Shown here: piece after piece, positions 6,234-56,916 of the stretch | How positions within the stretch are numbered: the stretch's first letter is position 1 | Layout of the letters: each line of letters starts with the position of its first letter | NCBI GenBank assembly: GCA_035518715.1 | Contig: DATIXJ010000027.1 | Coordinates: 85,657-149,656, forward strand | Origin: Bacteroidota bacterium | GTDB taxonomy: Bacteria; Bacteroidota; Ignavibacteria; UBA10030; SZUA-254 | Reading direction: 5' to 3' | DNA: 64,000 nucleotides | Made by a program: the position numbers and the translations under genes | Notes under the pieces: generated by a model | The model's input: the letters and a program-made list of their open reading frames with translations, nothing else | The model's database searches: none | What the model was told of the DNA's origin: nothing

Positions 6234-7289
6234 TTAGCCGAAAAGCTCCGCCTGCTTTCCCCTGTCATTCCGGAAGTGTTCCGTCGTGAGGACGGGATGA
6301 TGCTTCTCGAATCCGAACTTTTTACAGTTGAGCTCAAAGAGTCGGTTCACGGTTTCGGACCACATTCCTTCGCCGCTCATGCGAAGTCCCCAGCGTCCGT
6401 CATCCAGCGTTCCGCGGTGTGTTTCTTTGATGCGGCGGAGGATCTTCTGCGCTTTTCCCGGCAACGAACGCTCCACCCATTCGAAGAATAACGTCCCGAC
6501 CGCTCCCGGCAGGCGCACAAGCGTGTAACTTGCCCGCGTTGCTCCCCGTTTAGCCGCAGCTTTCAGAATTGCCGGGATCTCCTCATCGTTGAGCCCCGGT
6601 ATGATGGGTGAGATGTTGATATTGACGGGAACGCCATTCTTCAGGAGAAGCTCCACCGCGTCGAAACGTTTTGCGGGCGTTGTCGTGCGCGGCTCCATCA
6701 GACGGACGAGGTCTGCATCCAGACTGGTGATGGAGATCGTCACGTCGACAAGATTCATGGCGCTCAGATTCTTCAGGATATCGAGATCGCGTGTCACGAG
6801 GTAATTTTTCGTGATGATGCCGAGCGGGTTGCGGAACCGGAGAAAGACCTCGAGGCATCGCCTTGTCAGACGAAGCGATCTTTCCGCCGGTTGATAACAA
6901 TCGGTATTTCCCGACAGGCAAACCCACTGCGGCTTCCAGCTTTTCCTGTTCAGCTCTTTTGCGAGAAGTTCAGGGGCATCGTGCTTGACGAGAATTTTGG
7001 TCTCAAAGTCGAGCCCGGCAGAGAATCCGAGATATTCGTGGCTCGGCCTTGCATAGCAATAAATGCAGCCGTGCTCACATCCCCGGTACGGGTTGAGACT
7101 GTACGTGAAGGGGACGTCGGGACTGTCGTTGCGGGCGAGAACGGATTTGGAGGTGTCTTTATAGAAGATGGTCCGGACGGGGCGGTCGCCGTCGTCCTGC
7201 GATTCAACTTCCATCGGTTCGAGATGGAGGGCTTCAAACTTGTTCGGTGTATTGAAGCGTGCCCCTCGTCCTTTGGCCGGTGACCGCAT
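6234..7289 (-). CDS. Radical SAM protein, PA0069 / SplB-like family
   Basis: KGRGA..N..NRF-type N-terminus, and a CxxxCxxC cluster in NPYRGCEHGCIYCYARPSHEYLG. Confidence 0.9.
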   Translation of the reverse strand: MRSPAKGRGARFNTPNKFEALHLEPMEVESQDDGDRPVRTIFYKDTSKSVLARNDSPDVPFTYSLNPYRGCEHGCIYCYARPSHEYLGFSAGLDFETKILVKHDAPELLAKELNRKSWKPQWVCLSGNTDCYQPAERSLRLTRRCLEVFLRFRNPLGIITKNYLVTRDLDILKNLSAMNLVDVTISITSLDADLVRLMEPRTTTPAKRFDAVELLLKNGVPVNINISPIIPGLNDEEIPAILKAAAKRGATRASYTLVRLPGAVGTLFFEWVERSLPGKAQKILRRIKETHRGTLDDGRWGLRMSGEGMWSETVNRLFELNCKKFGFEKHHPVLTTEHFRNDRGKQAELFG

Positions 7290-7313
7290 GCCGGGTTCCT
7301 CAGAGATCGGGTA

Positions 7314-7643
7314 CTACTTGACTCCCAGTTTCTTTTTTGCCTCCGGACTCATCATGGCCGGACTCCAGACCGGATCCCAGACGATGCGGACGTCGCATTC
7401 GTGGACACCGGGAAGTTCGAGAACTTTTTCGCGGACCTGATTGGCAATGGCGCCACCCATGCCGCATCCGGGTGTCGTCAGCGTCATCTTCACGCCGACC
7501 CAGTCGTCGATGATCTTCACATCATAGACGAGCCCGAGATCCACAATACTCACGGGGATTTCGGGATCGAAAACCTGCTTCATGGCTCCATACACATCGG
7601 TCTCGCTGATATTTGCTTCGGGAGGAATCGTTTGTTCGGTCAT
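7314..7643 (-). CDS. sufT: Fe-S cluster assembly factor SufT / DUF59 (MIP18 family)
   Basis: The motifs DPEIPVSIVDLGLVYDV and TLTTPGCGMG are typical of DUF59. Length is 109 aa. Confidence 0.85.
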   Translation of the reverse strand: MTEQTIPPEANISETDVYGAMKQVFDPEIPVSIVDLGLVYDVKIIDDWVGVKMTLTTPGCGMGGAIANQVREKVLELPGVHECDVRIVWDPVWSPAMMSPEAKKKLGVK

Positions 7644-7748
7644 GGTAAATCCTTTCCTGTACTAAAGTACGCCTTTTGAAAATCGATTGCAATCCGGGGG
7701 GATGAAAAGCTTCGCCGGGATGTTGACGCTGCCGGCGCGAAGAATCAC

Positions 7749-9032
7749 TTATTTTGCAGGTGTGATCTCAAAATATTTCCGCTGTGCCCGGAGATCGGCC
7801 AGCCGGATTTCGATATTGCCGGTGTGCATCCGCGCGGGGAGATAGATCGGCGTGCAGCCGTTCCCTTCCATTGACCCGCTGTTCTCATCGTTGGCGGTTG
7901 TATCCTCAACGGCGGGATGAAGTTTGCTCAGAGGCGAAGTGGCATCGCATTGGGAGCAAACCAGCTCGCCGTCTTTCAGATAATAATGGCCGTAGCTGTA
8001 GCAGGCATGGCACGCATCGAACGCAGTTGCAAACGTTCCGAGACCGGTCCGGATGACGAAAAATCGGATTTCCAGACCGTTGTCCTCGATGGCATACCGA
8101 TGAAGGTTGCCGTCGCCAACCTGTCCGATCGGAATCTGGAATAGGCCCGACGCCGGGATGGGAATCCGGACAGAGGAGAGGTCCATTGCCGTACCGGAAG
8201 AAAAGATCTCGCCGACGCCGAGGAAGGAGATGATGACGACAGAAAGCGCCACGGCACTCAGCTGCCAGCGGCGCTGTGAAGTCATTGTGCCGGACGCCAT
8301 CCTCTTTCTGCTCGGAAAGACGAGCATGAAGACCGGGATGCTCAGAATTGCGACGATGAAGAGGACGTCGTGCTGAACGATGGGTCCGAGGATTCCCATC
8401 ATGGACGGACTTGCCGGAAGTATACCGTATTCGTAGAACTCATGAACGCCATTGAGGAGGAGCTGGAGGGTGAAGATCATCAGCGTGACGGCAGTGATTT
8501 TCAGGAATCGGCCGATGTCGATGCGCACGCTGCCGCGGATGAAGAGCACGGCAAAGACCGTTGCCAGTGCCAGCCCGATTATCGTTCCGAGGGCGCTCTG
8601 CCACGCGCCGGTGCTCAGTGCCACCGCCTGCAGGAAAATTGCGGTTTCGATTCCCTCACGCACGATCATCAGAAATGTAAATGAGAGGATCCCGGCGTGG
8701 GCCTTCCAGGACGAGCGCACCGCGATGGTGCCGACTTTTTCCTCGATCTCACCGCGGATCTTTCTGGCGGTGATCCACATCCAGACGATCATCGAGATGA
8801 CAAAAATCGCGGCCGCCATCATGAAGAATCCTTCGAGCGATTCCTGGTCGATGGCAAGTTTCTGGAGGAGGTATGCTCCTCCAAAGCTCGCAAGAACTGC
8901 CAGCACCAGACCAATGTAGACGGATATCACCAGCGATTCCCTCTCGATCTTCCTCAGGTAGACAATGACAATTCCGAGGACGAGGGCAATTTCGATGCCT
9001 TCGCGAAGTGCGATAATAAGGGATTCTATCAT
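7749..9032 (-). CDS. FTR1/EfeU-family iron permease fused to a C-terminal Cys-rich DUF2318-like domain
   Basis: Two REGIE motifs (ALREGIEIAL and VREGIETAIF) sit in a polytopic N-terminal half. The C-terminal approx. 170 aa contain FDACHACYSYGHYYLKDGELVCSQCD. Confidence 0.85.
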   Translation of the reverse strand: MIESLIIALREGIEIALVLGIVIVYLRKIERESLVISVYIGLVLAVLASFGGAYLLQKLAIDQESLEGFFMMAAAIFVISMIVWMWITARKIRGEIEEKVGTIAVRSSWKAHAGILSFTFLMIVREGIETAIFLQAVALSTGAWQSALGTIIGLALATVFAVLFIRGSVRIDIGRFLKITAVTLMIFTLQLLLNGVHEFYEYGILPASPSMMGILGPIVQHDVLFIVAILSIPVFMLVFPSRKRMASGTMTSQRRWQLSAVALSVVIISFLGVGEIFSSGTAMDLSSVRIPIPASGLFQIPIGQVGDGNLHRYAIEDNGLEIRFFVIRTGLGTFATAFDACHACYSYGHYYLKDGELVCSQCDATSPLSKLHPAVEDTTANDENSGSMEGNGCTPIYLPARMHTGNIEIRLADLRAQRKYFEITPAK

Positions 9033-9065
9033 TTCGTCATCCCTGCCTTCATAGTTGCTTCTCCT

Positions 9066-9509
9066 TCACTTTTTCTTCGACTGACACTTTGCGCAAATGC
9101 CGAAAATCTGCAGGGTCGAATTCTGCAGGAGGAATTTTTTCCCCTCGCAGACCTCCTTCTGCAGTTTATCCAGCTTCTCACTGACGAACTCGATAATATC
9201 CCCGCATTCGAGGCAGATAAGGTGATCGTGCCGCGGTTTCCCGAACGCTTTTTCGTATCTGGAGTGGTTCTCGCCGAAACGGTACTTTGAGATAAGGCCG
9301 CAATCGACGAGAAGGTCGAGCGTATTATAGACCGTTGCCCGGGATGCTTTCAGGCCCTTGGCGGTCAGAGCCGCAAAGAGCTCGTCCGCATCGAAATGGT
9401 CATTCGTCTTCATGATCTCTTCGAGAAGGACCAGCCGTTCCCGCGTCGAGCGAAGCTTCTTCTCTGCGAGGTATTTTGCCAGGGTTTCCTTTGCAGCCCG
9501 GATATCCAC
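9066..9509 (-). CDS. fur: Fur-family transcriptional regulator
   Basis: Winged-helix region: RSTRERLVLLEEIMKTNDHFDADELFAALTAKGLKASRATVYNTLDLL. Metal site: HDHLICLECGDIIEF...CAKCQ. I prefer the GTG start at 9509, which gives 147 aa. The longest ORF extends to 9614 and would overlap the divergent promoter region. Confidence 0.85.
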   Translation of the reverse strand: MDIRAAKETLAKYLAEKKLRSTRERLVLLEEIMKTNDHFDADELFAALTAKGLKASRATVYNTLDLLVDCGLISKYRFGENHSRYEKAFGKPRHDHLICLECGDIIEFVSEKLDKLQKEVCEGKKFLLQNSTLQIFGICAKCQSKKK

Positions 9510-9521
9510 GAGATACCTTAA

Positions 9522-9540
9522 ATTTAGAATCAGTCTAAAT
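9522..9540. promoter_or_regulatory. Candidate operator: 7-bp perfect inverted repeat ATTTAGA-N5-TCTAAAT in the fur/SDR divergent spacer
   Basis: ATTTAGAATCAGTCTAAAT lies 13 nt upstream of the proposed fur GTG. It is AT-rich and Fur-box-like in architecture, but it does not match the classical consensus. Confidence 0.3.
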
Positions 9541-9635
9541 ATATAAATTCCCTGTTCCAGAGTCAAGATTCCGGCTTGTATCCCATTCTCCCATCCCGTA
9601 CATTCTTTCATCAAAAAAACCCCGAAGACTGCGCC

Positions 9636-10397
9636 ATGATGATCAATCTTTCCAACCAGGTTGTCTGTATTTCCGGCGGATCCCGCGGAATTGGAGCTGC
9701 AACTGCACGCCTTTTTGCCCGCTCAGGGGCCAGTGTGGCGATTCTTTTTTCACAAAATAAACGCGAAGCAGGCCATGTTATTGACAGTGTTGAGGAGTAT
9801 GGAAGGGATGCAGAGGCGTTTCGCTGCCGCGTTGAACAATTGGATGACTGCCAAAAGGCAATTCGATCGGTTCTCAGGCATTTCGGAAAAATCGATATAC
9901 TAGTCAATTCCGCTGGAATCTGGGAGTTCGGGAAAATCGGAGAGCTGAGCGAACGGAACTGGAAGAAAACACTCGATGTGAATCTCACGGGCACGTTCAA
10001 CCTCTGTAATGAGGTTGTTCCGATCATGAAGCGGCGAAAGTACGGGAGGATTATCAATATTTCGAGTACAGCGGGCCAACGCGGCGAGCCGTTTCATTCG
10101 CACTATGCAGCATCAAAAGGCGGAATCATCGCGTTCACGAAATCCATTGCGGCCGAGCTGATACGGGATGGAATCCGGGTAAATTGTGTAGCTCCGGGCT
10201 GGGTAGACACCGATATGGTGGCCGGGGCGTTGAGAAACCGCCGTGCACGCAAGGAAATTGAACAATCGATCCCCCGAAATAAAATCGCGACTCCGGAAGA
10301 CATTGCCGGACCAATCCTCTTTCTGGCTTCAGACTTGTCGGATCATATCGTTGGCGAGGTCATAAATGTCAACGGTGGGTCTGTGCTCTGCGGCTAA
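9636..10397 (+). CDS. Short-chain dehydrogenase/reductase, FabG-like
   Basis: Cofactor motif ISGGSRGIG, NSAG, and catalytic S...YAASK. I prefer the ATG start at 9636; the track ORF starts at 9576. Confidence 0.9.
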   Translation: MMINLSNQVVCISGGSRGIGAATARLFARSGASVAILFSQNKREAGHVIDSVEEYGRDAEAFRCRVEQLDDCQKAIRSVLRHFGKIDILVNSAGIWEFGKIGELSERNWKKTLDVNLTGTFNLCNEVVPIMKRRKYGRIINISSTAGQRGEPFHSHYAASKGGIIAFTKSIAAELIRDGIRVNCVAPGWVDTDMVAGALRNRRARKEIEQSIPRNKIATPEDIAGPILFLASDLSDHIVGEVINVNGGSVLCG

Positions 10398-22768: not shown

Positions 22769-23880
22769 AGACTGCCGTGGTATTCGGAACGCGTCCCGAG
22801 ACGATAAAGCTTGCACCGGTAGTGAAAGAGCTGGAGAAGCGCAAGCTCGATCATGCCGTCATTGTTACGGCACAGCACAGGGAGATGCTCGACCAGGAGC
22901 TTGGCGTTTTTAACATCACGCCGCATCATGATCTCAATATCATGCAGCACAACCAGGATCTCTTTCATGTAACGACTGCCGTACTCAATCACATCAAACC
23001 GGTCCTGGCGAAGGAGATGCCGGATGTGCTCCTTGTCCAGGGAGACACGACGACGACATTTGCGGCAAGCTTAGCGGCATTCTACCTGAAAATTCCCGTT
23101 GGGCATGTGGAGGCGGGGCTCCGGACGTGGAACAAGTTCAATCCGTGGCCCGAGGAATTGAACCGCCAGCTCACGACACGCCTGACGGATTTCCATTTCG
23201 CACCGACGGAATGGGCCGGAAAGAACCTGCGAAGTGAGGGCATCGAGAAAGAGCGGATTTACGTAACCGGAAATACGGTCATCGATGCGCTGCTCATGAT
23301 CGTCGATCCGAATTACAAGTTCACCGAAGCGCCTCTCGATAAGATCGATTTTGAGAAGAAGCGGATCATCGTACTCACTTCGCACAGGCGTGAGAATTTC
23401 GGCGACCCGATGGGACAGATATTCACGGCGTGCAGGATGCTGGTGGAAAAATATCCTGACACGGAATTGATTTATCCCGTGCATCCGAATCCGAACGTGC
23501 AGAAGAAAGCGAAGGAAATCCTCGCCGGTGTTCCGCGGATTCACCTGATCAAGCCGATGGAGTATCGGCCTTTCGTTCAGCTGATGAACAAATGTTACCT
23601 GATTCTGACGGATTCTGGCGGCGTGCAGGAAGAAGCGCCCTCGCTCGGGAAGCCGGTGCTCGTACTCCGGAAGACGACGGAGCGTCCCGAGGCGATCGAA
23701 GCCGGCACGGCAAAGCTGGTGGGTACCGACCGCGATCCCATTTTCCGTGAGGCCGACAAGCTTCTCTCCGACCGCAAAGCGTATCTTGAGATGTCGACAA
23801 AGGCGAACCCGTACGGCGACGGCAAGGCATCGGAGCGGATCGTCGACATACTTCTCCGGAGCGTAGTAAAGGCAACGTGA
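22765..23880 (+). CDS. wecB: UDP-N-acetylglucosamine 2-epimerase (non-hydrolysing)
   Basis: Motifs: VFGTRPETIKLAPV, VQGDTTTTFAASLAAFY, HVEAGLRT, TDSGGVQEEAPSLGKPVLVLR. Confidence 0.95.
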   Translation: MKTAVVFGTRPETIKLAPVVKELEKRKLDHAVIVTAQHREMLDQELGVFNITPHHDLNIMQHNQDLFHVTTAVLNHIKPVLAKEMPDVLLVQGDTTTTFAASLAAFYLKIPVGHVEAGLRTWNKFNPWPEELNRQLTTRLTDFHFAPTEWAGKNLRSEGIEKERIYVTGNTVIDALLMIVDPNYKFTEAPLDKIDFEKKRIIVLTSHRRENFGDPMGQIFTACRMLVEKYPDTELIYPVHPNPNVQKKAKEILAGVPRIHLIKPMEYRPFVQLMNKCYLILTDSGGVQEEAPSLGKPVLVLRKTTERPEAIEAGTAKLVGTDRDPIFREADKLLSDRKAYLEMSTKANPYGDGKASERIVDILLRSVVKAT

Positions 23881-24782
23881 TGCCTCAGCAGTTTCCTCTC
23901 GTCTATTGCAACGTCCTGACGCTGAACGGCAGGGACGTCCTCGTCGAGACACTCGATACCATCCGTGCAATGACCTATCCCAATTTCAAAGTGCTTGTGG
24001 TGGATAACGGCTCGACGGACGGGTCGCAGAAGTTCCTGAAAGAGAAGTACCCGTGGGTTCATCTCATTGAGAACGGGGAAAACCTCGGCGTCACCGGCGG
24101 GCGGAATGTGGGAATGAAGTACGCTCTTGAACATGGAGCGGAGTGGATTCATCATATCGACAACGATGTAAAGGTCGATCCGGAGCTGTTGAGCGAGCTG
24201 ATGCGTGCCGCAGCGACCGATTCCAAGATCGGAATACTCGGCTCCAAGATCTTCTATTATGCGAAACCGGACACACTCTGGTATGCGGGAGGAAACGTAA
24301 ACTACTGGACCGGCATGGTGACGCACCGCGGCTTGCGGCAGAAGGATACGGGTAAATACGACAGGTTCGAAGACACCGCGTATGTTGTGGGGTGCTCTTT
24401 CTGTCTGAGCCGCAACGTTCTCGAAACCGTGGGGATGTTTGATCCCATTTTTAATCCGTTCTACACGGAAGATTCCGACATGTGTGCACGGGCGGTGAGG
24501 TCGGGGTTCCGCGTGGTCTATGTCCCGACGGCGAAGCTCTGGCACCGCGTCTCGACTTCGAGCGGCGGTATCATCACACCGAAGCGGATGACGCTGAAGA
24601 TCGAGTACAATCTTATTTATTTCAAGCGCTACGCCCGCTGGTACCACTGGCTGACGATCCCGTGGTGCATCGGCTTCCTGACGCTTGTCTTCCTGGTCAA
24701 GGAGCTTGCCAAAGGCAAATTCAGCACAATTCCCGCGCTGGCGAAGGGATTTGTCAAGGCGGTGAAACAGCTCTTCGGGTAA
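23877..24782 (+). CDS. GT2 glycosyltransferase (rhamnosyltransferase-like)
   Basis: Motifs: VVDNGSTDGS, NLGVTGGRNVG, IDNDV, FYTEDSDMC. Overlaps the wecB stop by 4 nt. Confidence 0.9.
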   Translation: MMPQQFPLVYCNVLTLNGRDVLVETLDTIRAMTYPNFKVLVVDNGSTDGSQKFLKEKYPWVHLIENGENLGVTGGRNVGMKYALEHGAEWIHHIDNDVKVDPELLSELMRAAATDSKIGILGSKIFYYAKPDTLWYAGGNVNYWTGMVTHRGLRQKDTGKYDRFEDTAYVVGCSFCLSRNVLETVGMFDPIFNPFYTEDSDMCARAVRSGFRVVYVPTAKLWHRVSTSSGGIITPKRMTLKIEYNLIYFKRYARWYHWLTIPWCIGFLTLVFLVKELAKGKFSTIPALAKGFVKAVKQLFG

Positions 24783-25173
24783 GTTCTTATCTCCGTTCTT
24801 TCCAATAATTCCAGCCCATCTTCAATTTCGCTTGAAGATTCGCAAATAATTCGTTACCATTCTTCATGTGTCGAATTTTTGGGGGATGAAATTCGACGCT
24901 CCCTTGACGACTGATGTCCGGTTGAATCAGTGCGGGGGTCTTTCGAAATGAATTCGACGGTGACCGCAGATCTGCGATTCCCGTCGGGTTACCACCACAG
25001 CGTTTATCATCTGGCTCTTTTTCTGTTTTGATTTTCATTGTTCCGGGGATTTTGCTTCAGTTTACCGACAACGATAATGAGGCTTCTTCCGTGGACAACT
25101 AAAAGTGTCAAACACGCCGTGTGGCGAAATGCCAAACGTTATGTGCAATTGCTTCGCGGTCAAGGGAAAAAAC

Positions 25174-26549: not shown

Positions 26550-26611
26550 GATCAACATCGCAAAGCAGCTGCGCACGTTATGCGCCATGAACGGCGGCAG
26601 CTGTGTTCTGC
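26550..26611 (+). other. attC-like imperfect palindrome (weak candidate)
   Basis: GATCAAC (26550-26556) ... GTTCTGC (26605-26611). The inner arms CAGCTGC/GCAGCTG pair. The centre is GCGCA-cgtta-TGCGC and contains ACGTTATGCG, which recurs at 29385-29394. The flanking 7-mers are non-canonical. Confidence 0.25.
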
Positions 26612-26644: not shown

Positions 26645-27253
26645 ATGTCAACTGACAATAGTAAAAACGAGGTGGAACATTTCAACCGGTGGTCCCGCAC
26701 ATATGACAAGTCATGGATACAACGGTTCGCACTCCCTGTCCACCAAGACATGCTCGATGTTGCTGGTAATCTAGTCGCGGCTCCGCAATCGATTATCGAT
26801 ATAGGATGCGGAACCGGACAGCTTCTAATCAAAGCTTCAGCACGTTGGCCTTCGGCGTACCTTGTCGGCGTGGATCCTGCGATAGGCATGGTTGAGGTTG
26901 CACGCAGCCAAACTCGAGGTGCCACAATCTGTATCGCGAGTGCCGACTCGCTGCCGGTTGCTGACTCCTCAGCCGACATCGTCTTCAGTAGTCTCTCGTT
27001 CCATCACTGGGCTGATCAAACGAAAGGTCTTCGTGAAATAGCTCGCGTGCTGCGTCCGGCCGGTTGCCTCTGTATTGCAGACATTACAATGCCTGACTGG
27101 ATTGCTAAAATAATCCGGCGCGTCAAGGTCAAAGCACCTGTGGAGATGGCTCGTCTTCTCACCGATGCTGGTTTGATAGTCAAATTGCAGAGGCGGAGTT
27201 CTACCAGATTTGTTCTGCTGACCGTCGGAGTTAAGAACTCGGGCAGGACGTGA
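26645..27253 (+). CDS. Class I SAM-dependent methyltransferase (Methyltransf_11-like)
   Basis: Motifs: IIDIGCGTGQL, ADIVFSSLSFHHW, LRPAGCLCIAD. GAGGA lies upstream of the ATG. Confidence 0.85.
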   Translation: MSTDNSKNEVEHFNRWSRTYDKSWIQRFALPVHQDMLDVAGNLVAAPQSIIDIGCGTGQLLIKASARWPSAYLVGVDPAIGMVEVARSQTRGATICIASADSLPVADSSADIVFSSLSFHHWADQTKGLREIARVLRPAGCLCIADITMPDWIAKIIRRVKVKAPVEMARLLTDAGLIVKLQRRSSTRFVLLTVGVKNSGRT

Positions 27254-27314
27254 CCAATCAACACACTACGTTGCGGTGTAAGTGTTGATGCTGCCGTGCA
27301 CGAGCGTATAACAG

Positions 27315-27439
27315 GCCTAACAACGGCGCTCCCTCATTTTATATGGCGATGGCAACCCAAAACGAAAGCCTAAAGGATATCGCTCCATGCCGCACTCATT
27401 TAAGAGAAGAGCGCGGAGTGCGGCACGGCGTCGTTGGGC
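27315..27439 (+). other. attC-like site (best candidate), 125 bp
   Basis: The 5' end GCCTAAC (27315-27321) fits RYYYAAC. The 3' end GTTGGGC (27433-27439) fits GTTRRRY. The two 7-mers pair (6 Watson-Crick pairs and one G-U). The inner arms pair imperfectly with bulges (ACGGCG/CGGCGT, CTCC/GGAG, CTC/GAG). The site lies 62 nt after the upstream stop and ends 11 nt before the next ORF. Confidence 0.45.
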
Positions 27440-27449
27440 GAAACGGTAG

Positions 27450-28076
27450 GTGGTGAACAACCCAATGCTGATCACACTCGAGATCCTGGCGGTGGTCATC
27501 GCACCCCTCATATTTCTATACCTCAAAGGAACCTGGCATTTACGTGCTTCCATCCCGTGTCTCGTCAGCATATCTATCCTGTGGTATCTGACCTACTCGC
27601 CGATACATGAGTTGAGCCATGCTGCCGCGACATATCTGGTAGGCGGCCAGGTCACCTACATGAAGCTCATTCCCCGGTTCTGGCTCGGCGAGTATGGACG
27701 CGCATGGATCACGCCGGCCGGAATTACGGAGGGCTGGCAGCAACTCATCATGACAGCTTCTCCGTACATCATGGATGTGGCGTGTCTTACGGCAGTCATA
27801 TTCGTTCTTCAACGAGGTTTCTCGAAGAAGGCCTTTGTCGTTGGTCTTGTCTTCATGCTTCTCTGTTTGAGGCCTGCATTTGATTTCATCTGCGAGACAA
27901 TCGCGTTTCTCTCCGGCGACAGAGGAGACTTCTTCCACATAGAGATTTTGACCGGAAGCTTTATGATCCGGCTGCTCTTGCTCCTATCGCTCGGGTTATC
28001 CCTGTTTGCTATCGTGAACATTTTGAGGCGCTTTGTCGGGTTTCCTGATGCTCCATTACGTACGGCGAGCACATGA
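27450..28076 (+). CDS. Membrane protein with an HExxH motif (DUF3267-like putative zincin)
   Basis: SPIHELSHAAATYLVGG lies between TM helices, and there are about 5 hydrophobic segments. The start is either GTG 27450 or ATG 27465. Confidence 0.6.
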   Translation: MVNNPMLITLEILAVVIAPLIFLYLKGTWHLRASIPCLVSISILWYLTYSPIHELSHAAATYLVGGQVTYMKLIPRFWLGEYGRAWITPAGITEGWQQLIMTASPYIMDVACLTAVIFVLQRGFSKKAFVVGLVFMLLCLRPAFDFICETIAFLSGDRGDFFHIEILTGSFMIRLLLLLSLGLSLFAIVNILRRFVGFPDAPLRTAST

Positions 28077-29217: not shown

Positions 29218-29248
29218 TGAACAGTAACGGACACTGAGCTGCACGAAC

Positions 29249-29393
29249 GCATAACACATCACTCACTCATCTGGTGAGGTGTGGTGGGGTCAAATGTTTG
29301 GCTCGATGGTTGGTGTTCGTTCATCGGCTCGCACACCCACGCCAGAAAAGCAAAAGCATAGTGCTCGCTGGGCGTGGTTGCGAAACGTTATGC
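29249..29393 (+). other. attC-like site candidate, 145 bp
   Basis: ACGCATAAC (29247-29255) is perfectly complementary to GTTATGCGT (29387-29395). The interior holds several imperfect hairpins (CTCAC/GTGAG and CCACGCC/GGCGTGG). The site ends 32 nt before the next start codon. Confidence 0.35.
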
Positions 29394-29425
29394 GTCAGGC
29401 CCCGGCGCTGAAATGAAAGCAGAAG

Positions 29426-30342
29426 ATGTTAACAGACGACAAAGTTAGAACAGCCGCCTTTGATTGGCTTGCGAAGCAAGCTGCTCTTCACGGTGAAGTT
29501 CTGCCAAGGAATCTCCTCCAGCACGGGTTCATCATCGAAGGAAAGCGGATTCCTTTGCTTTCTCCCCAAGGCATTTTCAGACCCGCGGTACTCCATGATG
29601 CCCCTCTTTCGATCGTAACTTCTCCCGACAGCCCGTACAATGATAGCTTCAGTCTGGATGGCCTGCTGCAGTACAAGTATCGCGGTACCAATCCTCGTCA
29701 TCGAGACAACGTGGGATTGCGGGAAGCGATGAGGAATCACATTCCACTTATTTATTTCCATGGCATTGCCCCCGAAAATATATTGCGGCCTGGCCGGTTT
29801 ATATCTTCAGTGATGATCCGACGAATCTCACATTCACAGTGATCGTGGACGATGTCGCAACCGTTACGATGCGAAGAGGAGAACAGCCCATTCAGGAGGT
29901 TCCCGATGAAGAAGCGCTCTTCAGCCGCAGAGCATACGTGACGAAACAAGTCCGACAACGACTTCACCAGCAAGCTTTTCGTGCCCGGGTTCTCGCCGCT
30001 TACCGAGAGCAATGCGCGTGTTGCAGATTACGCCACGAACAGCTGCTGGACGCTGCACACATCATTCCCGATTCAGAACCTGAAGGTGAACCTGTTGTCA
30101 GTAATGGCATCGCACTCTGCAAGCTACATCATGCAGCGTTTGATGAATTATTTATCGGCATTACACCCGACCACATTATACAAGTGAGACGCGACATCCT
30201 TGAGGAATTCGACGGCCCGATGTTATTGCATGGCCTTCAGGGATTGAATGGAAACAAAATTGTCCTGCCGCGATCACTCAGGCACCAGCCGAATCGCGAA
30301 TTTCTAGAGAGACGATTTATTCTTTTTAGGAATGCTGGATGA
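29426..30342 (+). pseudogene. HNH endonuclease (HNH_2 / putative restriction-endonuclease-like) disrupted by a 1-nt frameshift
   Basis: Track ORFs 29426-29842 and 29839-30342 are two halves of one protein. The frame changes within CCCCCGAAAA (29769-29778). Read through, the sequence is ...FHGIAPE(K)YIAAWPVYIFSDDPTNLTFTVIVDD.... The HNH core is CACCRL...LDAAHIIP...NGIALCKLHHAAFD. Confidence 0.75.
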
Positions 30343-30481
30343 TCCGCATTTTCGCACGGCATGGTGAAAACGTCTTACGCGCAAAGCACCGATAGTCCGC
30401 GGCCTCAAACAAGGGTGGGCGAGACCGCGTGCTTACGCGAACGCTAGACGCTATAACATCAGGACTTAATGAGAGACTCAT

Positions 30482-31155: not shown

Positions 31156-31272
31156 AGTATCCGGAGCCGTGCAATCGCCAGGGGAGTGCGGCTGGAAATC
31201 AACCGACGCTTTGCGATTGCGCAAGTTCTTTGATTACTTTCTTCCAAAGAAAGTAACAAAAGAGATTTCCAG
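31156..31272. repeat. Structured intergenic repeat, copy 1 (117 bp)
   Basis: It shares GTGCAATCGC, TGGAAATCAA, GCTTTGCGATT, GCGATTGC(G/A)CAAGTTCTTTG(A/G)TTACTTTCTTCCAAAGAAAGTAACAA and GATTTCCAG with 34804-35026. Inverted repeats are 31171-31178/31213-31220, 31192-31200/31264-31272, and a 10-bp hairpin at 31234-31256. Confidence 0.8.
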
Positions 31273-34803: not shown

Positions 34804-35026
34804 AGTATTCCAGAATATGCGGGGCTGTGCAATCGCTAGCGTTGTGCGTTTGGAAATCAATCCCCGCTTTGCGATTCCGACGGAATAGCATACAGGTCGT
34901 GTTCGCTCATTGCTTGAGCGTCGGAATCGCGCTGAACCTAAGCCGGCCGCATCGAAGCCGTGTGTTGCGATTGCACAAGTTCTTTGGTTACTTTCTTCCA
35001 AAGAAAGTAACAACAAAGATTTCCAG
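34804..35026. repeat. Structured intergenic repeat, copy 2 (223 bp, with an extra internal module of about 96 bp)
   Basis: It has the same conserved blocks as copy 1. The outer inverted repeat is TGCAATCGC (34828-34836) / GCGATTGCA (34967-34975). The extra 12-bp perfect inverted repeat is GCGATTCCGACG (34871-34882) / CGTCGGAATCGC (34919-34930). The identical hairpin lies at 34988-35010. Confidence 0.8.
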
Positions 35027-42724: not shown

Positions 42725-43831
42725 ATGAGAAATCCGATACAGGTTTCAAAACCGGTTATTGCCCCCGATGAACGGGCCCGTGTCGATCAGGTACTTCAGT
42801 CGGGAATGATCGCCTCGGGGAAAGTTGTCGAAGAGTTCGAGCAAAAATTCTCCGCTTATTGCGGCTGCAAATTTGGTATTGCAACAAGCAACGGTACCAC
42901 CGCACTTCATGCCGCTCTTCAAACACTGGGGATCGGCAAGGGCGACAAGGTGCTGACGACTCCCTTCACCTTCATCGCCTCCACGAATTCGATTGCGTAC
43001 TGCGGTGCAACACCGGTCTTTGGAGATATCGACCCGAAAACCTATAACCTGGATCCGGAATCCGCCCGGGCGATCCTCGCGAAGCAAAGGGATATCAAGG
43101 CGATTCTCCTTGTCCATCTTTACGGTCTCCCGTGTGATATGGATGCATTCCTCCGGCTGAAGAAGGAGTTCGGCGTGCTTCTTATCGAGGACTGCGCTCA
43201 GGCGCACGGTGCAACATACGGCGGACGGAAAGTCGGGTCGATCGGTGACATCGGGGTGTTCAGCTTTTACGCTACGAAAAATCTTACCACCGGCGAAGGG
43301 GGCATGATCGTGACTCACGATGAATCGGTCTCCAAGTGCATCCGCAAACTTATCAATCACGGGAGAACCGGACAATATGAGCACGATATCCTCGGATACA
43401 ACTACCGGATGACGAATATTGCCGCAGCGATCGGGATCGGTCAGCTGGAAAAGCTCGATACGAACAATCGACGGAGGCAGGAAATTGCAGCCCGGTACAC
43501 GAGGGAGTTTTCAGCGCTTCCATGGTTAAAAGTTCCTCATGTCCCGGCAGGCAGTACGCACGTCTATCATCAATATACACTCCGAACTCCCAGGCGGGAT
43601 ACATTCAGGAAGTATCTGGGAGACAATCAGATCGGGAGCTTCATCGTTTACCCTCTCCCCAACTGCCAGCAGCCGCTGTACCGGGGAACGTGTGACTGCG
43701 ATCCCAAGGGCGACCGGATCTGCGGGAATTCGATCAACGCAAGTGCGGAAGTGCTGTCAATTCCGGTCCATCCATACCTCACCAAGGACGATATCGAGCA
43801 TATCGTCTCGACCGTAAAGAAGTTCCATTGA
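42725..43831 (+). CDS. DegT/DnrJ/EryC1/StrS-family PLP-dependent sugar aminotransferase
   Basis: Motifs: NGTTALHAAL, EDCAQAHGA, SFYATKNLTTGEGGMIV (PLP lysine), GYNYRMTNIAAAIG. Confidence 0.95.
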   Translation: MRNPIQVSKPVIAPDERARVDQVLQSGMIASGKVVEEFEQKFSAYCGCKFGIATSNGTTALHAALQTLGIGKGDKVLTTPFTFIASTNSIAYCGATPVFGDIDPKTYNLDPESARAILAKQRDIKAILLVHLYGLPCDMDAFLRLKKEFGVLLIEDCAQAHGATYGGRKVGSIGDIGVFSFYATKNLTTGEGGMIVTHDESVSKCIRKLINHGRTGQYEHDILGYNYRMTNIAAAIGIGQLEKLDTNNRRRQEIAARYTREFSALPWLKVPHVPAGSTHVYHQYTLRTPRRDTFRKYLGDNQIGSFIVYPLPNCQQPLYRGTCDCDPKGDRICGNSINASAEVLSIPVHPYLTKDDIEHIVSTVKKFH

Positions 43832-56842: not shown

Positions 56843-56916
56843 GGGCCCTTAGCTCAGTTGGTTAGAGCAGCTGACTCATAATCAGCTGGTCGCAGGTTCG
56901 AGTCCTGCAGGGCCCA
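56843..56916 (+). tRNA. tRNA with anticodon CAT (elongator Met or lysidine-modified Ile2)
   Basis: Hand-folded cloverleaf. The acceptor stem GGGCCCT/AGGGCCC is perfect. The D arm is GCTC/GAGC. The anticodon arm is GCTGA-CTCATAA-TCAGC. The T arm is GCAGG-TTCGAGT-CCTGC. The discriminator is A. Total length is 74 nt and CCA is not encoded. Confidence 0.95.

Follow-up and report, generated by a model that had tools for sequence, protein, structure and literature searches.

The window analysed here is a stretch of 64,000 nucleotides (nt) from contig DATIXJ010000027.1 of the Bacteroidota bacterium assembly GCA_035518715.1, and the subject of this analysis is the intergenic spacer between a methyltransferase gene and the gene of an HExxH membrane protein. 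An initial annotation, made from the sequence alone, had placed in this spacer an integron-type cassette boundary site (attC) of 125 nt (27315-27439), bounded by the 7-mers GCCTAAC as its R'' box and GTTGGGC as its R' box. The general idea of an integron-type boundary is retained, but the assignment of the two boxes is not: the spacer carries a larger element, here called B (about 27297-27452), in which the two 7-mers, as judged from sequence comparison, most likely form an inner, L-box-like helix. With a probability of roughly 0.6, B is an attC-derived, non-canonical and probably inactive short-spacer site in a cassette island without an integrase. All features described below lie on the forward strand of the window, and external loci are denoted by an L and a number.

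The larger element was recognized by comparison with another spacer of the same island. Spacer B (27254-27452) and spacer C (29218-29425) are homologous at both ends and only there, their centres being unrelated; the common ends read TGCACGARCGYATAACA on the 5' side and GCGAAAC-GKTA on the 3' side. More specifically, the conserved 5' end of B, TGCACGAGCGTATAACA (27297-27313), is identical in 15 of 17 positions to 29240-29256 of spacer C (TGCACGAACGCATAACA), a score that was reached in 3 of 1000 shuffles. On the 3' side, where the end of B aligns with GCGAAACGTTATGCG of spacer C, the score of GGCGTCGTTGGGCGAAACGGTA in B against GGCGTGGTT--GCGAAACGTTA in C was reached in none of 1000 shuffles, and cross-comparisons of 5' with 3' ends stayed at noise level. 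The conserved end blocks are 152 nt apart in B and 150 nt apart in C. A host-specific attC family is recognized by just this combination: ends that are conserved, a centre that varies and a length that stays the same. Because the homology extends beyond both 7-mers, the boundaries of the element were moved outward to about 27297-27452, and the notion of a 125-nt attC that ends at the 7-mers is not sustained by the comparison.

The sister element C (29240-29395), with TGCACGAACGCATAACA at its 5' end and GCGAAAC-GTTATGCGT at its 3' end, has perfectly complementary 9-mers at its ends and carries GTTATGC where B has GGTAGGT. Its folds reach z-scores of -3.4 and -3.5 on the two strands (0/200 shuffles), as compared with only -1.5 and -1.75 for the flagged site, which is not unusual for its composition. 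The stretch 27315-27439 had been called the best attC-like site; by folding, that place belongs to 29247-29395.

Read from its 5' end, B consists of an outer R'' box, a 2-nt spacer, a 14-nt long-range helix, a variable centre with a hairpin, a GAAAC spacer and an outer R' box. The R''-like box, GCGTATAAC (27304-27312), lies inside the conserved 5' end and reads GTATAAC, which is off the consensus RYYYAAC. The arms of the helix, GCCTAACAACGGCG (27315-27328) and CGGCGTCGTTGGGC (27426-27439), contain the two 7-mers (GCCTAAC at 27315-27321, GTTGGGC at 27433-27439), which are present where they had been reported, fit RYYYAAC and GTTRRRY exactly, and do base-pair on the top strand: 12 of 14 arm positions are paired (11 Watson-Crick pairs and one G-T), with two mismatches, no bulge and no extrahelical base. 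The variable centre holds a strong local hairpin (27385-27428; CCATGCCGCACTC, an 18-nt loop and GAGTGCGGCACGG), whose 13-nt arms, 27385-27397 and 27416-27428, are 92% complementary and dominate the centroid folds of both strands; the inner CTCC/GGAG pairing that had been proposed competes with this much stronger hairpin. No T-run follows on its 3' side, and a terminator scan gave no call for it. The 3' arm of the helix, which falls within the conserved 3' block common to B and spacer C, is followed by the spacer GAAAC (27440-27444) and by the outer box of R' type, GGTAGGT (27445-27451). This box has GGT instead of GTT and scores 12.4 bits under the end-motif weight matrix all the same. The inner pair of boxes therefore fits the R''/R' consensus exactly, while the outer ends that are set by homology, GTATAAC and GGTAGGT, do not. 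Since the inner reading keeps some support (see below), B could also be a composite of two site ends.

Both genes that meet at B are cassettes elsewhere. The upstream gene (26645-27253) encodes a class I S-adenosylmethionine-dependent methyltransferase of 202 amino acids (Pfam Methyltransf_11, E 5e-22). Exact copies of it occur only in seven contigs of the same species, with identical synteny, and its homologs of 59-75% identity are all found, in four different arrays, among small unrelated genes that run in one direction. In L010, a textbook sedentary integron array with a conserved attC of ~152 nt after each gene, the methyltransferase homolog is one cassette, and each R' agrees in its distal part with the R'' of the site that follows downstream, the signature of circular cassettes; in L012 the homolog is also flanked by genuine attC sites of ~150 nt. 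The methyltransferase cassettes of L010, L012, L013 and L014 carry GTTAGGC as their R' box, at a distance of about 60 nt on the 5' side of the ATG. In the window, an R'-type box, ACGTTATGCGCC (26575-26586, with GTTATGC at 26577-26583), is located 61 nt before the methyltransferase ATG, the same relative position as that of GTTAGGC in L010, L012 and L013, and L091 and L115 each have a cassette bordered by exactly this 12-mer. On the strength of these sequence matches, the box would be the 5' border of the methyltransferase cassette.

The downstream gene (27453-28076) encodes an HExxH membrane protein with a weak likeness to Peptidase_M50B (Pfam E 4.6e-4). Its in-frame starts are GTG 27450, GTG 27453 and ATG 27465, and the spacer to the methyltransferase gene measures 196-199 nt. 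The flagged unit does lie between the stop codon at 27253 and the start of this gene, as had been annotated, but the start chosen there (27450) gives way to GTG 27453, which is favoured by homology to L097. The protein has 455 homologs; they stand in different arrays in L091-L093 and are found in 80 metagenome loci, where many are directly bounded by attC sites. When cassette borders were tested, homologs of both genes proved to be attC-bounded, in L010, L012, L091, L108 and many of the loci L094-L173.

The ends and the geometry of B have counterparts in other genomes. The 5' end aligns over 34 nt with a repeated site of L092, here L092-b (z 6.5, 0/300 shuffles), and the box GCGTATAAC also ends cassettes in L108 and L092. 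The 3' end, GCGAAACGGTAGGTG, agrees in 14 of 15 positions with the 3' terminus of an L141 attC (GCGAAACGTTAGGTG, or GCGAAAC-GTTAGGTG when divided in the same way as above), a site that counts among the relatives of the L010 attC family and is detected by the canonical covariance model R1 described below. In L091 the membrane-protein homolog is bounded by ACGTTATGCGCC and GGCGCATAAC, which form a 10-nt complement, and leaders in L115, L103, L099 and L097 begin with the same R' box; in L108 an open reading frame (ORF) of 147 codons is bounded by GTTATGCGCC and GGCGTATAAC, the two bounding boxes within each of these loci being complementary over 9-10 nt. The geometry of L108, L160, L099 and L092-b consists of an R'' box, 1-3 nt, a helix with 9-10 of 12 pairs and its matching arm, followed on the 3' side by 4-5 nt ending in AAC (or GAC, AAG) and then by GTTAKGY. 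A short-spacer type was defined here accordingly, as an R'' ending in ATAAC, 1-3 nt, a helix with at least 9 of 12 pairs, the arm, 4-5 nt that mostly end in AAC, and GTTAKGY; this type is based on about eight sites, some of them from window-derived patterns, and has no experimental standing. B has its R'' box, its helix (10/12, or 12/14 over the full arms) and its spacer (GAAAC), with GGT in place of GTT. In a scan of both strands of the window by a helix term and by end-motif weight matrices derived from the external sites, C (36.8) came first and B (31.9) second, the maximum over 200 shuffled windows being 28.3.

A further look-alike of the 3' end of B is found in L096, where a C-terminal tyrosine recombinase fragment (494-790; Phage_integrase, E 1.5e-15) runs in the direction of the cassettes. 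At 13 nt past this fragment stands ACAGCGTTGTTGGGCGAATTGTTATGTG, a block that resembles the 3' end of B and has its GTT intact, and L096 758-786 is identical to the 3' end of B in 22 of 28 positions; a decayed array may have its start here. In addition, 27389-27407 in the centre of B (GCCGCACTCATTTAAGAGA) nearly matches L096 2248-2268 (GCCGCACTCATTCAAAGAGA), the start of an ORF6N-domain gene directly after a PEMT gene, and the centre of B might hold the remnant of a lost cassette's 5' end.

Several results weigh against the derivation of B from attC, and some of them come from canonical models. The covariance model R1 was built here from 14 genuine attC sites of L010 and describes an R box and, beyond a spacer, an L box that contains a bulged base; it is a purpose-built model, not that of IntegronFinder, and its sensitivity for divergent sites is incomplete. 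As a positive control, with filters off, R1 recovered attC sites at 13-50 bits in L012, L141, L155, L156, L159 and L161 and likewise in L162, L167, L169, L171 and L172, with L157 at 9.7 bits. The stretch 27315-27439 gave no match down to -3.5 bits when the spacer was searched alone, which is below noise and fails the covariance-model check proposed for the 125-nt unit, and a search of the whole window gave no match with E <= 10 that covers the flagged site. The sister site (29248-29394) scored 3.2 bits, which is noise as well. Arm-only profiles of canonical attC sites rank neither arm of the site in the window. A second covariance model, R2, which was restricted to the arms of 20 diverse sites as mini-attCs (92% of cells paired, 10 compensatory pairs), shows in these sites two bulges 6 bp apart, matching the published definition; its null result on the window is uninformative, as R2 found none of the held-out attC sites of natural length and thus failed its positive control.

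The geometry points in the same direction. The published definition (PMC5027507) gives each arm of an attC an unpaired spacer of 5-6 nt and places two or three extrahelical bases at a distance of 6 bp, and B departs from this in both respects: its spacers measure about 2 and 5 nt and its helix has two mismatches without extrahelical bases. The top-strand fold does pair the ends, leaving no unpaired spacer if the 7-mers are taken as the ends, and roughly 2 + 5 nt if the outer boxes are. In the predicted fold of the recombinogenic bottom strand, the long-range helix is not formed; the 7-mers, which have a C.A mismatch on this strand, stay unpaired. The single-strand fold that was suggested as a check on the 125-nt unit accordingly yields neither a paired R box nor a 5-6-nt unpaired spacer nor an L box with extrahelical bases. 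No stretch other than the AAC/GTT triplet is conserved across all attC sites, and it provides the micro-homology for strand transfer (PMC5027507); the crossover triplet in B is GGT, and it is GTT in every site compared. Furthermore, only two clear copies of the family (B and C) exist in the window, and several of the external sites were found through patterns derived from B and C, so the weight-matrix scan is not fully independent of them. Pfam scans of about 50 ORFs found no Phage_integrase or other tyrosine recombinase in the 64 kb, and a six-frame scan of the window for the box II motif found none. Site B shows no structural or sequence variation in the seven same-species contigs, which stem from different samples, and no recombination joints were seen in the Logan contigs of four runs, where coverage is thin.

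The comparison with attC sites of sedentary chromosomal integrons (PMC5027507; IntegronFinder, PMC9024848) is therefore a mixed one. Like these, B lies at the 3' end of a co-directional gene that has no promoter and that other genomes carry as a cassette, has AAC and GTT-type boxes at its ends around a variable centre, with imperfect long-range pairing of the arms, and has a length (about 150 nt) that resembles that of its sister site, as in host-specific attC families; unlike these, and in addition to its spacers and its lack of extrahelical bases, it has an outer R'' that reads GTATAAC, an outer R' without GTT and an R1 score below noise. The attC family of L010, which includes sites in L012, L156, L159, L162, L167, L171 and others, likewise flanks homologs of both genes, and the CGTTA core of its R' end (CCGTTAGG) is found at sites A and C of the window, whereas site B has CGGTA (site A being the R'-type box upstream of the methyltransferase gene). 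However, sites of this family have a 5-7-nt spacer and an L box in which GCT-C-AAGCTG-A-CGG pairs with CCG-CAGCTT-AGC, features that the site in the window lacks, and it shows neither their two extrahelical bases 6 bp apart nor their strong covariation. Site B probably works like an attC and descends from one, but it is outside the canonical definition and is not filed as a canonical member.

The original proposal survives as an unlikely alternative, namely that 27315-27439 is a self-contained attC of 125 nt with R'' GCCTAAC and R' GTTGGGC, possibly recombinogenic, and that the outer boxes are leftovers of a neighbouring or earlier site. Its 7-mers keep AAC and GTT and are exact fits to the consensus, and the GTT is 20 nt before GTG 27453, as R' is before the ATG in the short-leader homologs of L155, L161, L167 and L148. 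Moreover, GCCTAAC-AACG-GCGCTCCC resembles the R''-spacer-L'' starts of genuine sites in L093 (GCCTAAC-GA-GGCGCTCCCT; 5/300 shuffles) and in L012 (12/300), where the attC compared sits after the homologous methyltransferase. Yet the helix continues directly from the 7-mers without an unpaired spacer, and the L pairing CTCC/GGAG needs a 7-nt bulge and draws on bases that are locked in the stronger hairpin, with bulged bases on the wrong arm as compared with canonical sites. The C.A mismatch in its bottom-strand R box, its R1 score below noise and the homology to spacer C that runs past both 7-mers also speak against it.

It is equally improbable that the spacer is an ordinary one, in which palindromes serve transcription or RNA stability (as a leader for the membrane-protein gene or as a 3' structure on the methyltransferase mRNA) or belong to a small dispersed repeat, and in which the consensus arose by chance. 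Pairs of RYYYAAC...GTTRRRY at a distance of 50-160 nt number 3 in the 64-kb window, where about 1.3 are expected, and dinucleotide shuffles of 14 island spacers gave a probability of 0.118 for at least one consensus pair and of 0.049 for at least one pair with 6/7 complementarity; with a chance probability of about 0.05-0.12, the 7-mer pair is thus only marginally above chance. The local hairpin is the dominant structure of the spacer, the site is invariant among strains, and homologs of the downstream gene often have a conserved leader of about 115 nt. In the window, however, this leader is largely missing, its profile matching only 27442-27466 with E 6.7, and the idea that GTTGGGC is merely part of a conserved leader is for this reason unsupported. 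An apparent leader match to L111 (z 5.1) was lost on correction for 76 comparisons. Nor was an Rfam element found in the spacer: a whole-window scan and a permissive local one gave a tRNA-Met at 56843 and, as the best match, a sub-threshold S-adenosylhomocysteine (SAH) riboswitch (E 0.4; 18.7 bits, where the threshold is 37). No intrinsic terminator and no sigma-70 or otherwise notable promoter was called in the spacer. An ordinary spacer also leaves unexplained why the homology to spacer C is confined to the ends and why these match cassette borders in other genomes.

The leader itself was observed 5' of membrane-protein homologs in L091, L097, L099, L103, L113 and L115. It begins exactly at the R' box (AACGTTATGCGCCATTTGCCTCAGC...), ends with ...ATTCACTTTTCCCTGAAAGCTGGCTCATG and travels with the cassette across genomes; it might act as a promoter carried by the cassette, or as a regulatory RNA.

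More doubtful still is the explanation that B is functional and belongs to a separate cassette system of Ignavibacteria and Bacteroidota, one that does not depend on IntI and has its own site geometry and an Xer-like recombinase elsewhere in the genome. The geometry that is common to L108, L160, L099 and L092 is indeed non-canonical, and the tyrosine recombinase fragment of L096 stands beside a B-like block and points in the same direction as the cassettes. This fragment, however, comprises 83 residues and cannot be typed as IntI or Xer, and the GGT in the R' box speaks against current activity of B. L160 carries a site of B's geometry in the same locus as a 5' end, after the membrane-protein gene, that by eye looks like that of a canonical attC, although R1 gave no match in L160 at E <= 0.5; the co-occurrence, if real, suggests a single system.

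If B is the attC-derived, short-spacer site proposed here, it would mark the junction between the methyltransferase cassette and the cassette of the HExxH membrane protein. Sites of this kind would fold as single strands, and a tyrosine recombinase would cut them at the G|TT step in the R' box, which would allow cassettes to be excised and inserted. We infer that B descends from such a functional site and is inactive at present: given GGT at the crossover triplet, the missing extrahelical bases and the lack of a recombinase nearby, the present copy is most likely a fossil, which would serve only as an intergenic spacer.

The island in which B lies (about 24.8-42.7 kb), flanked by a GT2 gene (23877-24782) and a DegT gene (42725-43831), is a co-directional run of small unrelated genes that interrupts a glycan-synthesis cluster and includes, besides the methyltransferase gene, genes for HNH, PEMT, DUF3795, MarC, glyoxalase, DUF1697 and DUF1801 proteins. 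The host, which comes from metagenomes of wetland and peat, is Ignavibacteria-like: its YchF has 78% identity to proteins that bear the name Ignavibacteria bacterium. The window also encodes Type IX secretion sorting domains. The borders next to B are worse kept than B itself. Spacer A has only its R' box; in its comparison with the 3' end of spacer C, 11 of 1000 shuffles reached the score. Spacer D has only an R''-type box, GACGCTATAACA (30447-30458), which stands alone at the end of a frameshifted HNH cassette with the rest of the site missing; taken alone, the likeness of this box to the 5' ends of spacers B and C falls short of significance. The spacer 3' of the membrane-protein gene shows only a decayed version of the ending AAACGGCGCATAAC that is seen after homologs of this gene. 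At the other side of the island, an R'-type box, AAACGTTATGTGC (25134-25146), extends into the initial codons of the first gene in the island, which encodes a CarboxypepD_reg-domain protein; it is the third-best combined site of the window in the weight-matrix scan (18.2 bits for the 3' box) and may mark the left border of the island. A cassette hallmark, in the form of an upstream R' complementary to a downstream R'', was sought in the window, and nothing beyond the common consensus was found.

Integrons are on record in Ignavibacteriae, and clusters of attC sites without an integrase (CALIN) have been proposed to be degraded integrons (PMC9024848). The island resembles a CALIN in being a co-directional run of small unrelated genes without a recombinase in the 64 kb, its border sites being decayed to various degrees (half sites in A and D, a mutated R' in B, and C best kept). 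A CALIN is, however, defined by at least two model-detected attC sites, and the two homologous sites of the window, 1.9 kb apart, fail the canonical model, so that the label applies by analogy only.

Some further observations concern the neighbourhood. The HNH_2 gene (29426-30342) is split in the window by a frameshift at about 29773; a same-species contig (L003) has one extra base at this position and an intact gene of 305 amino acids, and the extra base is also present in run X3. A structured intergenic repeat, unrelated to the B/C family, exists in two copies (31156-31272 and 34804-35026) with the sequence GTGCAATCGC...GGAAATCAA...GCGATTGC..AAGTTCTTTGRTTACTTTCTTCCAAAGAAAGTAACAA..AGATTTCCAG; each copy ends 25-40 nt 5' of the next start codon. 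In a sister species (L174; YchF 89% identical), the contig stops shortly before the island.

Relatives of the methyltransferase are spread over Ignavibacteriota, Bacteroidota, Acidobacteriota, Chloroflexota, Spirochaetota, Nitrospirota and archaeal metagenome-assembled genomes (MAGs). Close relatives, 39-54% identical, are carried by MAGs of Methanoregula and Bathyarchaeota from peat and wetland (the archaeal relatives are in loci L017, L021, L024, L027-L031, L035, L063 and L067), which hints at a spread of the cassette methyltransferase across domains. In L010, the same cassette of 290 amino acids lies on both sides of the methyltransferase (6835-7707 and 8807-9679), with identical leaders and attC sites, and looks like a recent cassette duplication. 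In L008 and L009 the methyltransferase homolog belongs to a long series of small accessory genes, which share one direction and are separated by short spacers, and no attC of either kind is recognisable there; these arrays resemble the rest of the island in the window.

The case of B also bears on how such sites are to be recognized. A perfect fit to two 7-mer consensus boxes did not mark the real boundary of the element; comparison of neighbouring spacers told more than consensus matching and was decisive for site B. More generally, the finding touches on the reach of integron-type gene capture beyond Proteobacteria, and on the share of it that is missed by standard detectors. There is a slim chance that B and C, together with the look-alikes in L092, L099, L108 and L160, represent a distinct and so far unrecognised class of folded cassette-recombination sites in Ignavibacteria and Bacteroidota. 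Sites of such a class would combine an AAC|GTT junction with spacers that are asymmetric and very short, and would lack extrahelical bases. Canonical attC models would not see them, and the tyrosine recombinase that serves them would possibly be other than a classical IntI. If this were true, many islands that lack both an integrase and attC sites, such as that of the window and those in L008 and L009, would be products of active gene capture. The island in the window contains two genes that are demonstrably cassettes elsewhere, and its border sites fail the canonical attC model and nevertheless have ends and geometry in common with the borders of other wetland metagenome arrays. If decayed or divergent sites of this kind are common, (i) surveys by covariance models would undercount cassette arrays in Ignavibacteria and Bacteroidota, and (ii) some accessory gene islands would be fossil integrons.

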